In this document: positions 3,001 through 7,324 of the stretch, piece after piece
Position numbering within the stretch: the stretch's first letter is position 1
How the letters are laid out: each line of letters starts with the position of its first letter
Virus record (IMG/VR): IMGVR_UViG_2690316286_000009
Reading direction: 5' to 3' (one strand)
Source: a virus
Taxonomy: Duplodnaviria > Heunggongvirae > Uroviricota > Caudoviricetes
Length of the DNA: 7,324 nucleotides
Position numbers: made by a program

Positions 3001-6000
3001 ATGTAGTTCGTTACGGCATTTACGGCATAACGGAATAACAAACAAATCATCAGCCTTTGTTCCCATCCCTCCCAGTCCATGACCAATGATGTGATGCGGA
3101 TCATCTGCCTGATTGCCACACGTCATGCATTTCTGCGTTTTTACCCAGCGCGTGTATACAGGCATCTCTTCCCGTTGTGATTTCTGGCGCTGGAGATACT
3201 GAGCCGGTGACTCCGGATCAACGGCAATGCTGACCACCGTCTTTTCCTGTGGTGGGTTCTGTTGCTGGTGGACGTGAGGCAGTAACGCAATATTTTTTGT
3301 GCGCTGCTTCAGTATGCTGGTGGCTGTCTGCTCTCCCGGTATGATGTCGCTTTCACTGTACACAGAGCGAATTTTTTCCGCACGCAACCCCAGCGAACGA
3401 CGTAATACCGCTTCCGGTAGCGCGTCCGCCACCTGATTGCGGACCGCCCACCAGGATAATTCAGCCAGAGATAATTCACGCTCCTGCGTACCGCTTATTG
3501 CGTGACCGATGACGTCAATCATCCATGCTGACAGGTTTTGATGAGCAAGTTGCTCGAGTGATTCGGATGTCTGGTCACGCAGCTGGTTGTCGCAGTGCCA
3601 GCACAACACCATTGCGCCGGTACCATAACGGTGAATGACGGTTTCGCTGTGATGATAATCGCCGTGTGGCCACTGGCAGGATTTAATATGGCGCAACAGC
3701 CAGTCAGACAATGCACCAGCACCACCAGCAGCACGAATCACCCGTGCGTTACTGAAAAACGGCAGCAATGTTTTGTCTTCCACCAGCGGCTGGCGAGCGG
3801 CAGGAACGACCCCGGACGGCAGATTACGCATGCTTTTTGGTTCCGGCTCCACCAGTATTCTGCCGTTATGGAATGCTGACATTGATTCACGGCCTGGCTT
3901 AACGATAACCAGACCGAGTTCCGGTACCAGAACAGGTCGAAGTAATACCCGCACATTACCTCCAGATCCGTTGCTGGAATGTGCGGGACGGACGCGTTGG
4001 CCGTTCGGAGTAAGGGAGCCTGACGGAGATTATCCAGTGACGGTAGTCGAGGCTAAGGGCTTTTTTAACCTCGCATCCGCGCCTGCGGTAACACTGAATG
4101 AGCCATTCGGCCTGTTCTTCAGTGCATGGGGGATGCTGGTACCAATCAGATTTAAATGCGTGAGAGCGCCGCCCGTGCCTGCTGGCAAAGACGGCTGAAT
4201 TATCAGAATTGTGTAGTCTGGAATTTTGCGCCATCGGCTTTCTCCGGTGGCACAGTGTTACTCAACAGGGGTTCAGCCCTGCGCTGAATTGTAGATGAAT
4301 TCACTCATCTTCAAAAGCAGAAAAACCAGCCTTAATCCCAGCTTCTTTCAGAGACGGCAACGATGTGACAAATTCATTTGCACGCGAAATAAAACCATCC
4401 GTCACAAGCCCATCCACAAAATGAATTAACGCAGCTCCACTCTTCCTTTGTTGAGACTGTAAACATTTAATACGGCAGTGGCTGACAATAGCGCCATTCT
4501 CAACGCGCACAGTATAGAGGCCATCTTCACTAAAAATTTCACGTAATTCTTCGATTTTCATCAACAGAATCCTTCCAGATAAATAGCACTCCCCTGTTCG
4601 GGGTCCATCCCTCTTCTCCCTGCGCGCTACTTAAGTATTTTTGATTCTATTCCGGCACCATCTAAAACTTCAAACGCGTTGAAAATAAAAACAAAAACCC
4701 GCCGAAGCGGGTTAAGTGTGGGTGCATTGAGGATGCCTGACCCATCAGAGGTGGCGAGGGATTTCTCCCCCGCCTGGTCTCTTACTCCTCAGGTTCGTAA
4801 GCTGTGAAGACAGCGACCTCCGTCTGGCCGGTTCGAATTCGTACCTCGCAGAGGTCTTTCCTCGTTACCAGTGCCGTCACTATGACGGTTAAACAGATGA
4901 CGATCAGGGCGATTAACATCGCCTTTTGCTGCTTCATAGCCTGCTTCTCCTTGCCTTTCGGCACGTAAGAGGCTAACCTAGATTTGCCGTTCATAGATTG
5001 AGCCTCAGATTAATGTTAAGCGTCTTGCCGGACGCGTAATGTTAACTGGGGCTTTTCTCTATCTGCCTTTTGGTGTTCATGCCTGANNNNNNNNNNNNNN
5101 NNNNNNNNNNNNAGCCTCAAGCACCCGCTGCAATTCTACTTAACTCTCCTTTTCCCGCAAACCGTTTTTATCCCCAGCGGCAAATCGAATACACCACCAG
5201 CGCCACCGCCATCGCAATTCCTACCGTGGTGAATGCCTCAGGCCAGGTCATTGATTCACCTCCTGCGGTGGTTCCGGTAGCGGCATCCAGTGAGTTGAGC
5301 TCTCTACTTCAACGCCGTCTTTGTCCACAAAAGCCATCTTATTCCCGCCACGAGTGGGGCAAAAAACCTTATCCCAGGAACCGGGGAATACATTCCCGAG
5401 ATCATCGAGAAGAATCACATCGCAATATTCAGCAGGAACTGCATCACTACAGCTTATCCAGCCAGCCGGAGCTACCGGAGAGTTGCCAGCCTTACGCATG
5501 GCCATTTCCACGATTTCAACCATATCTCCTGGTGGAATTTTACAAAGTTGCCCAATACATTTCTGCTGCCTGGCATATTCGAGAATGTGCTCCAGTTTGG
5601 TTCGATTAATCATTATTTATCTCCCTTAAGCATGGCAGCGCGGCAGGCGTTCCAGCCATCAACATAATCAAACGTATTACTATCGTTTGGCCCGATTTCA
5701 TCCGGCACTATCGGCTCTGGTTGGATAGTGACGTTGGCAAAGGCAGCACGCAAACCGGTTTTAATTTCTTCGATTTCATCAGAGCCAAGCGATGAATCTG
5801 ACAGTGCGTGATGGAATGCGTAAGCCATGTCGTCGTTTACTGCAACCGGCACTGCCGGCGCTGCGTAAAGCGGTGTTATATCTGCCCGAAAATCACATGC
5901 TTTATGCAGTCGTACCCAACACTCAACTTCCGCTTTGTCAAAATATATAGCAGTGAACGTATTAGATTCCTGGTCAACTTGAGTAAACGTCACCTTCCAC

Positions 6001-7324
6001 GCTACAGCTACGGCTTTCCATCCATCAGGTTGTCGCATTCGCGGGGCAGCATAAAGCTCATGCATTCCATCAGGCAGCGAGTGACCCACATACTCACCGA
6101 ACCCGTCAATACACATGCCCCCATCTTCAACAATGCATTCCGCTACAGGCTCTGCTTCCAGTGATGCCAGAGCGATAAGCGCCAGTTCACGAATTTCACC
6201 GCCGTCTATATCGTCAATATCATCGCGGCCAGAAATGTTAGCCAGCCATTGCAGTCGCTCTTTGGTAATAGTGGTCATGCCGTAGCCCCTTCTTGATATT
6301 TTTCAAACCAGAACACAACCGGGTCAGATTTCATTTCAACCAATCCCATACGAACCAGCGCTTTGCCTTTCCCGGACGCAAGGAATTCACGACGACCATC
6401 ACTGATAATTCGTCGATAATCTTCCAGGCTACTGCAATGCTTGTGCAGATTGCATGGGTGGCATGCTGGTACCATGTTGGATATATCGTCACGTTCCTGG
6501 TGAAGCATATTTCCATCAAAACGAATGACCGGTTTTACATGGTCTGCATGCCACTTTTCGCCAAGTTCGCAGCCGCAATAAGCGCAGCGACCACCGAACT
6601 TCATGCGCAGTTCTGCACGTTGTTTTTTCGTCAGTGCCATATCAGCTTTCCTTATACGGATTAATTTTATTGTGCAGTGTGTTGAATGACGCCCATACCA
6701 CGTCGTTATACAATTCAATAACTGGCTCAATTATTTTTCCGATTATCCAGACAAAAATTAGCGGGGATATCGGTGTCATCAACACGATAAACAGAATGAG
6801 AAACAGGAATTCTGTTGTTCTACTCTTTCGCGGATATTTTTTTCTAAATAATGTAACCATTCATTACCGCCCTTTCGAGCGGTCTCCTGATGATTTGAGG
6901 GTGCAGAAATCCCTCCGGTTAAGGATTAAATTTTTAACAGTGCTAAATTTAATTATTCAGTTCTGGATTTTGTCGCCCTGCGTATCCGCGCTTTCGCGTT
7001 ACGCTCAATCTGTATCAGCTTTTCTATATTTCTCCGCCTTTCCTGTTCCTCCTGGCGCAATAGCCTTACATCATCTGCCAGTCTGGTTTCTCTTTTTGCC
7101 ACAGAGAGCATCCAGTCAAACGGCTCCACAACCGCACCGCAGATTTTACAGCGGACCTGACGCTCTTTTTCGTCAACCCGGACAGAGGCGTGATGGCAAT
7201 ATGGTCTTTCCGATGGTTCATAAAGAAAATTAACCTGATTACGTGGGTCATCCTCTTTTACCGGAAATAAAACGATATTGCTTAACTCATCTTGGTGATG
7301 CTGCCAACTTACTGATTTAGTGTA

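Follow-up and report, generated by a model that had tools for sequence, protein, structure and literature searches.

A variable slot in the nin region of an Escherichia coli lambdoid prophage, with DUF4014, HNH, p221 and DUF551 genes that probably assort separately

We analyzed a 7,324-nucleotide (nt) stretch of viral DNA, IMG/VR record IMGVR_UViG_2690316286_000009 (Caudoviricetes), referred to below in its whole length as the window. It represents the delayed-early (nin) region of a lambdoid prophage of E. coli. Our subject is a run of four closely spaced genes encoding a DUF4014 protein, an HNH nuclease, an acidic protein of 221 amino acids (aa) named p221 and a DUF551 protein, followed by p27, an open reading frame (ORF) of 27 aa. 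ORFs were called across the window, and its proteins and DNA were searched with Pfam, PHROG, Rfam, PADLOC and NCBIfam profiles. The four genes occupy a variable slot bounded by a zinc-ribbon gene and the hok/sok locus, and we consider it likely that they and p27 are separately assorting accessory genes in this hypervariable slot of the nin operon. As we picture it, the slot would lie between the conserved zinc-ribbon gene, itself downstream of the replication module, and hok/sok; the array would be co-transcribed through read-through from the early rightward promoter; and each protein would act on its own. The tight junctions between the genes would be short conserved gene-boundary joints and not the sign of a joint machine, keeping every module translatable while homologous recombination at these joints swaps modules among prophages.

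Distribution of the four genes across prophages

Genome counts show how seldom the genes travel together. We searched complete E. coli genomes, 5,426 in all, by megablast. Pieces of the block were present in 2,491 of them; with a query coverage of at least 80%, the HNH gene was present in 385 and the DUF4014 gene in 1,012, the two being adjacent in 217. The full-length p221 gene, the window's DUF551 allele and all four genes together were each found in 2 genomes.

We also fetched 80 IMG/VR contigs for each of the four proteins and called and clustered their ORFs to obtain gene orders. The 80 loci whose HNH protein was at least 96% identical differed widely in gene order, 62 arrangements being distinct. 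Upstream of HNH lay more than 10 different genes, among them DUF4014, a 62-aa ORF, several DUF551 proteins and at least 7 singletons, and there were more than 8 downstream, where a 114-aa gene was the commonest and p221, many DUF551 genes (121-278 aa) and 328-, 194- and 284-aa genes also occurred. Downstream of DUF4014 came HNH, a gene of 87 or of 95 aa, or DUF551 genes. Full-length p221 was confined to the exact block of the window, in about 17 near-identical contigs. None of the four named genes was as constant as p27. By tblastn (at least 80% identity and at least 70% coverage), p27 was detected in 41 of the 63 well-flanked loci anchored on HNH and in 38 of the 61 anchored on DUF4014, and it almost always closed the variable array ahead of hok/sok.

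Individual prophages illustrate the same variability. Between the zinc-ribbon gene and hokD, E. coli O157:H7 EC4115 carries 70-aa, 123-aa, DUF551 and 34-aa genes, and TUM10008 carries seven other genes in this slot, among them those for DUF7167 and an XF1762-family protein. The genes of the block also appear in other settings: the identical HNH protein accompanies DUF4014 in the exo-xis region of Stx phage ArgO145 (gp11/gp12), DUF4014 (L0067) is found without HNH in the exo-xis region of phage 933W, and in the CPS-53-like prophage of UTI89 the identical HNH follows yfdP-yfdQ-yfdR behind a 118-aa gene, without DUF4014. More distant HNH relatives adjoin a different upstream gene in each group: Eai in Salmonella (93% identity), a 66-aa zinc ribbon in the Citrobacter group (86%, with DUF551 downstream in 2 of 3), a 224-aa gene in an early-left operon of Pantoea (78%), NinB in Yersinia (74%), a 128-aa coiled-coil gene in Klebsiella (61%, with a 341-aa DUF551 downstream) and a 551-aa gene close to an integrase in Comamonas (47%). 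None of these relatives, at 47-93% identity in six other genera, has DUF4014 as a neighbor.

The entire block is also found in a second prophage backbone. Positions 5168-6960 are 99.7% identical to a prophage of E. coli FDAARGOS_944, integrated beside ttcA (the Rac site), where the block is flanked by replication genes and by nin, Q, tRNA and lysis genes. RefSeq names the four products there a DUF4014 family protein, an HNH endonuclease (WP_001229296.1), a hypothetical protein and a DUF551 domain-containing protein, and leaves p27 without annotation. The nin set past hok consists of DUF1367, DUF1364 and DUF1133 in FDAARGOS_944 versus DUF968, RusA and Q in the window; the block is therefore embedded in two different backbones.

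The first-pass annotation had suggested that the four genes together might be a prophage-encoded defense, exclusion or anti-defense cassette, and had proposed profile searches and a survey of co-occurrence across prophages. This reading, which we regard as very improbable, would fit a set of compact, co-oriented and co-transcribed genes that includes a nuclease and a membrane protein, and a block preserved at 99.7% identity in two complete genomes and in some 17 IMG/VR contigs whose flanks differ in part. It is countered by the occurrence of the four genes together in only 2 genomes when two of them, taken singly, are found in hundreds, by the restriction of full-length p221 to one near-clonal block and by the unrelated genes that fill the slot in other phages. 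As for the profile searches, Pfam recognized HNH, DUF4014 and DUF551 and gave no family for p221, and PADLOC matched no system: among nine proteins of the region, it returned partial HNH-motif matches below diagnostic level (PtuB and PDC-M01B) and a chance-level match of p221 to JetA (E 0.062), with no partner such as PtuA. The conserved linkage that a cassette would call for was likewise not borne out by the survey, with independent occurrence and varied neighbors throughout. Since the slot is variable, the four genes are rarely together and the gene orders are many, the genomic record argues that they are not a conserved unit and are separately exchangeable. The same annotation had noted that, if the genes occurred independently and without conserved linkage, they would be just adjacent early genes; that is the pattern found, and its more cautious alternative, ordinary lambdoid nin-region content, agrees with the independent assortment of the genes.

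The only linkage with some support is that of DUF4014 and HNH, on account of the adjacency counts, the fixed spacing and a joint move into another operon. The two genes might constitute a module in which the membrane protein anchors, gates or neutralizes the nuclease for superinfection exclusion, abortive infection or toxin-immunity, with p221 and DUF551 as bystanders; we hold this to be unlikely. Adjacency is nevertheless above random assortment, with 217 of the 385 HNH-bearing genomes and 47 of the 63 well-flanked IMG/VR loci having the pair, always 1 nt apart, even where DUF4014 is 85-97% identical, and the pair moved jointly into the exo-xis operon of ArgO145. A single Shigella sonnei record (P0002) contains a 194-aa protein with both PF13198 and PF01844, an apparent read-through fusion of the adjacent genes, between which only the TGA and 1 nt lie, probably via loss of the stop codon. 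On the other side, DUF4014 is not upstream in 44% of the HNH genomes and HNH is missing from 79% of the DUF4014 genomes, the identical HNH follows the 118-aa gene in UTI89 and, across IMG/VR loci, over 10 other genes, and the relatives in six other genera have other neighbors. Moreover, the genes c25 and c87 or DUF551 genes follow DUF4014 equally often, the TGA-n-ATG joint is common to unrelated upstream genes, PADLOC has no DUF4014 model, and the counts are inflated by related strains.

Several points weigh against separate assortment as a full account. The DUF4014-HNH adjacency exceeds what it would predict, and the two could be a functional pair within E. coli; many of the genomes and contigs are closely related, and the counts are not independent events; we infer recombination at the joints from the positions of breakpoints; and the roles of the individual proteins are deduced from their sequences. 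The narrower proposal that, in E. coli and Shigella prophages, DUF4014 and HNH form a genuine unit of two genes (such as a nuclease tethered to the membrane or gated by it, acting in superinfection exclusion or abortive infection), portable between nin and exo-xis with p221 and DUF551 as passengers, strikes us as having a slim chance of being right. Separate assortment of all the slot genes is the reading that we prefer.

Gene junctions and recombination joints

ORF calling recovered the four minus-strand ORFs where the first-pass annotation had drawn them, and the junction sequences TGAtATG, ATGA and TAATG read as it had reported. Its description of them as overlapping applies to two: ATGA between HNH and p221 (6278-6275) is a 4-nt overlap and TAATG between p221 and DUF551 (5615-5611) a 1-nt overlap, whereas DUF4014 and HNH are separated by a 1-nt spacer (TGA-t-ATG, 6644-6638). 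A fourth junction, absent from that annotation, is the ATGA at 5251-5248 that ties DUF551 to p27. A longer, TTG-started HNH ORF reaching to 6730 was considered and dropped in favor of the ATG at 6640, which has a ribosome-binding site (RBS), matches WP_001229296.1 and belongs to a conserved ATGGCACTGACG start found in every context.

Close packing is common in this part of the genome. Within the window, 7 of 10 junctions between genes on the same strand overlap or are at most 1 nt apart, and in the FDAARGOS_944 prophage the same is true of 7 of 24 other adjacent pairs versus 3 of 3 here (Fisher p = 0.04), so that the tightness of these junctions exceeds chance only marginally. Every gene has a Shine-Dalgarno sequence 6-10 nt upstream (AAGGAAAG, GAAGGGG, AAGGGAG and AGGAGGTG). 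No promoter-like or terminator-like site was detected on the coding strand from 7324 to 4714, and the sole terminator found on the coding strand of the array region lies after hok (4713-4696); co-transcription is therefore plausible. The proposal that the four genes are translated as one unit stands to this extent: with no internal promoter or terminator they may well share a transcript, but each has its own RBS, and translational coupling across the array, although possible, is not required.

What the junctions have in common across prophages suggests a different origin for their tight appearance. The sequences at the HNH boundaries are the same whatever neighbor adjoins. At least nine unrelated families of upstream genes end in an RBS (..AAGGAG..) within their last codons, followed by TGA-n-ATGGCACTGACG, and most of the genes downstream of HNH, which belong to several families, start with ATGAC(C/G/A)ACT(T/A)TTACC, a minority starting with ATGACAACTAAC. 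The resulting five-codon start, MTT(F/I)T, is common to p221, to the genes c14 and c218 and to several DUF551-type genes that follow HNH.

We mapped breakpoints by blastn of positions 4700-7324 against all fetched loci, which gave 193 distinct similarity patterns. Breaks in similarity cluster at 6653-6638, the DUF4014/HNH joint; at 6262-6251, just inside the start of p221; at 6041-6035 and 5857-5848, directly after the two stretches encoding LYAAP motifs (6056-6042 and 5870-5856); at 5488-5443, where the DUF551 domain starts; and exactly at 5251, the ATG of p27, where 38 similarity blocks begin. It is established for lambdoid phages that modules end where genes and domains end, and that homologous recombination can be directed to short conserved sequences at these boundaries (PMC3233612, citing Susskind & Botstein 1978 and Clark et al. 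2001). The breakpoint pattern reads as classical lambdoid modular mosaicism, with the MTT(F/I)T starts and ..AAGGAG..TGA ends as its predicted conserved recombination and translation joints. The upstream-gene joint would consist of the terminal RBS followed by TGA-n-ATG and the downstream-gene joint of ATGACCACT(T/A)TTACC, with the LYAAP-coding linkers as further joints inside genes, and the junctions would look tight because of these conserved joints.

The nuclease itself might be the cause of this local mosaicism, if it were a free-standing homing endonuclease that cuts slot alleles lacking HNH and spreads by gene conversion. Such a role would accord with the uniformity of the HNH gene, whose nucleotide identity is at least 95% in 701 of 704 E. 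coli records compared with 80-100% for DUF4014, with the presence of the identical protein in three prophage types and both early operons, and with the sharp similarity boundaries at both ends of its ORF. Yet the protein is only 121 aa long and has no DNA-recognition domain past the HNH core and a short helical tail. Among 160 HNH- or DUF4014-anchored loci there was no pair with the same flanks that differed by the presence or absence of HNH alone; blocks are replaced and not inserted, shared backbones exchanging HNH and c14 for c25 and DUF551 or for a single DUF551 gene (locus pairs L108/L141 and L100/L111), and slot genes that encode no nuclease use the same joints. We accordingly give homing little weight and return to exchange at conserved joints as the preferred reading of the slot.

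Predicted properties of the proteins

The HNH protein matches PF01844 above the gathering cut-off of 21.4 bits (Table 1). Its catalytic and zinc-binding residues are invariant across 22 relatives down to 50% identity (C19, C22, H31, D33, H34, N55, C60, C63 and N64), with a CCCC zinc finger (C19, C22, C60 and C63) framing the HNH motif. A family-specific C-terminal motif, G99...F110..E113, is likewise invariant in these relatives, and the C-terminal tail GLV...PVVFWFEKY is conserved. The family is widespread, with 700 clusters at E <= 1e-5, and extends past the prophages of Enterobacterales. An AlphaFold2 model was confident (pLDDT 87.7), and a Foldseek search of the PDB with it returned generic HNH domains alone (CBASS Cap5, the Cas9 HNH, Gme HNH, T4 endonuclease VII and McrA), none at E <= 0.001. 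The best PDB sequence match was a marginal one to the Gme HNH nicking enzyme 4h9d (E 0.058), the PHROG matches included 'endonuclease VII' (E 2.8e-12), and NCBIfam gave far sub-threshold matches to IscB and TIGR02646 (the latter with E 1.6e-4 and 21.8 versus 52.15 bits). A literature search for nin-region HNH proteins found nothing. Most likely, this is a catalytically intact, low-specificity zinc-finger nuclease that acts on DNA during phage development.

Two more specific identities were rejected. The match to lambda NinG/Rap (PF05766) scores 18.2 bits against a cut-off of 25.4 and covers only profile positions 93-147 of 193, and a packaging-associated HNH of the HK97 gp74 type does not fit the position of the gene, which in FDAARGOS_944 is about 8 kb from terminase with nin, Q, tRNA and lysis genes between. 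Downstream of the Salmonella HNH (93% identical) come a 78-aa gene and then genes for a dATP/dGTP pyrophosphohydrolase (PF04447, MazZ-like) and an Nmad5 protein, a nucleotide-modification context very unlike the E. coli one.

DUF4014 and p27 are most likely small membrane peptides. Residues 1-71 of the DUF4014 protein align with profile positions 1-71 of 72 of PF13198 (90 bits versus a cut-off of 23.2); the protein has an isoelectric point (pI) of 9.7, a hydrophobic core at residues 19-37 and a best 19-residue Kyte-Doolittle window of 2.68. A literature search for DUF4014 found nothing, and another yielded no source for its PHROG label, 'released from the phage upon host infection'.

For p221, which has a pI of 4.34 and two LYAAP motifs (residues 75-79 and 137-141), no Pfam family matched at E <= 0.1, Ead_Ea22 (PF13935) included. 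Partial PHROG matches fall on different segments (phrog_60, 12449, 5117, 660, 17148 and 3323), the protein shares modules with Ead/Ea22-annotated and DUF551 proteins, and its middle and C-terminal modules are found elsewhere fused straight to DUF551 domains. Since similarity breaks off just past both LYAAP-coding motifs, p221 itself reads as a mosaic of three modules.

The DUF551 protein aligns through residues 51-117 with all 68 positions of PF04448 (69.9 bits versus a cut-off of 22). Aligned DUF551 proteins have near-identical ends, namely about 45 N-terminal residues (MINRTKLEHILEYARQQK...PVTPDGWISCS) and a C-terminal THWMPLPEPPQEVN, and between them a core of about 45 residues that is completely different from allele to allele. 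Cassettes exchanged at the conserved ends could account for this pattern, as could selection for diversity in a binding surface. Genes related to the DUF551 gene bear the annotation 'ead/Ea22-like' and have PF13935 together with PF04448. The AlphaFold2 model was poor (pLDDT 57.7), and PDB sequence searches with p221 and the DUF551 protein gave no match. YfdS of CPS-53 is a DUF551 protein (PMC4776307), and the C-terminal DUF551 and Ea22 domains have been described as portable parts of acidic proteins with a mosaic build (PMC10834534). By analogy with Ea22, p221 and the DUF551 protein are probably acidic portable-domain proteins of the same type and may bind host proteins.

Feature map and comparison with known systems

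All sizeable ORFs of the window are on the minus strand, in the order zinc-ribbon gene, DUF4014, HNH, p221, DUF551, p27, hok/sok, DUF968, RusA, Q and methylase; Table 1 lists the features of the slot and its flanks.

Table 1. Features of the variable slot and its flanks. HSP, high-scoring segment pair.
Feature	Position	Strand	Evidence
Zinc-ribbon/coiled-coil protein, conserved left flank of the slot	6953-7324, extends past window end	-	phrog_1621, E 6.5e-54
DUF4014 protein, 72 aa, predicted small basic single-pass membrane protein	6642-6860	-	PF13198, 90 bits; phrog_1832, E 1.5e-44; RefSeq WP_000256997.1
Upstream joint of HNH: RBS within last codons of preceding gene, then TGA-n-ATG	6638-6653	-	HSP boundaries
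Stand-alone HNH nuclease (beta-beta-alpha-Me, CCCC zinc finger), 121 aa	6275-6640, from ATG	-	PF01844, 28.2 bits; phrog_2118, E 8.8e-57
Downstream joint of HNH: ATGA overlap and conserved ATGACCACT(A/T)TTACC (MTT(F/I)T)	6257-6278	-	HSP ends 6262-6251
p221, acidic 221-aa putative three-module mosaic protein with LYAAP linkers	5613-6278	-	No Pfam match; partial PHROG matches
First LYAAP-coding motif (p221 residues 75-79), mosaic joint just downstream	6042-6056	-	HSP ends 6041-6035
Second LYAAP-coding motif (p221 residues 137-141), mosaic joint just downstream	5856-5870	-	44 HSP starts at 5857-5848
DUF551 protein, 121 aa	5248-5613	-	PF04448, 69.9 bits, residues 51-117
p27, hydrophobic 27-aa ORF MTWPEAFTTVGIAMAVALVVYSICRWG	5168-5251	-	ATGA-coupled to DUF551; tblastn matches
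hok/mok/sok type I toxin-antitoxin locus, conserved right flank of the slot	4782-5126	-	Hok PF01848 (HOK_GEF), 81.6 bits; Rfam sok RF01794

The Rfam sok match (RF01794) extends over 4932-5126 with 73.8 bits, and a masked run of 26 N (5087-5112) lies inside the sok/mok leader. Beyond hok/sok, the minus strand carries two small genes and then those for a DUF968 protein, RusA, the antiterminator Q and a DNA methyltransferase. A second masked run, of 338 N (1204-1541), lies between the Q and methyltransferase genes, and in related prophages the matching interval holds a 65-aa hypothetical gene. Two genes of the same operon, at 2896-3954 (-) and 2515-2895 (-), encode a RusA family crossover-junction endodeoxyribonuclease, named from the annotation of equivalent genes, and a 352-aa protein whose equivalents are annotated DUF968. 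The Cys/His-rich C-terminus of the DUF968-type protein, CMTCGNQADDPHHIIGHG...CRKCRNELH, looks similar to a nuclease, and the small HNH may be partly redundant with the other DNA-processing genes of the phage.

The gene families of the slot are already annotated in RefSeq, and the arrangement is textbook lambdoid mosaicism. The analysis shows a case in which a compact layout of a nuclease and a membrane protein is very probably not a defense system, and it documents frequent exchange of cassettes in the interval from the zinc-ribbon gene to hok/sok. The small HNH, DUF4014 and DUF551 families are very common in prophages of pathogenic E. coli, which makes single-gene studies worthwhile.

Among known systems, the Septu PtuB and retron HNH effectors have the HNH motif in common with the protein described here (PADLOC PtuB, E 3.2e-8; the TIGR02646 match given above), but the PtuB alignment is limited to profile positions 20-88 of 227, and the TIGR02646 score is less than half of its threshold. 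An effector of either type was rejected on this partial match and on the lack of a PtuA ATPase or reverse transcriptase nearby. Small HNH nucleases such as Gme HNH (4h9d), T4 endonuclease VII and lambda NinG/Rap share the beta-beta-alpha-Me core, the CCCC zinc finger and the size of our HNH protein, and NinG also shares its nin-region location; they differ in that all matches are weak, that of NinG being below the gathering cut-off, and in that the GLV...PVVFWFEKY tail is specific to the family found here.

Ea22 of lambda and Stx phages (PMC10834534) resembles p221 and the DUF551 protein in being acidic and built of exchangeable modules, and its variant V2 has a DUF551 C-terminal domain. In contrast to Ea22, p221 lacks a Pfam Ead_Ea22 match and is encoded in the nin operon, not in exo-xis; the pro-lysogenic activity is that of Ea22 itself.

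The closest likeness is to the accessory genes of lambdoid nin and exo-xis regions. These, too, are small genes in one orientation whose stop and start codons overlap, located between the replication genes and Q, and their modules end at gene and domain boundaries with short conserved joints, as here (Susskind & Botstein 1978, Juhala et al. 2000 and Clark et al. 2001, cited in PMC3233612). The exo-xis regions of other phages even carry the same genes, L0067 of 933W being DUF4014 and ArgO145 having gp11/gp12. Nothing essential sets the present array apart from these accessory genes; its combination is merely rare (2 of 5,426 genomes).

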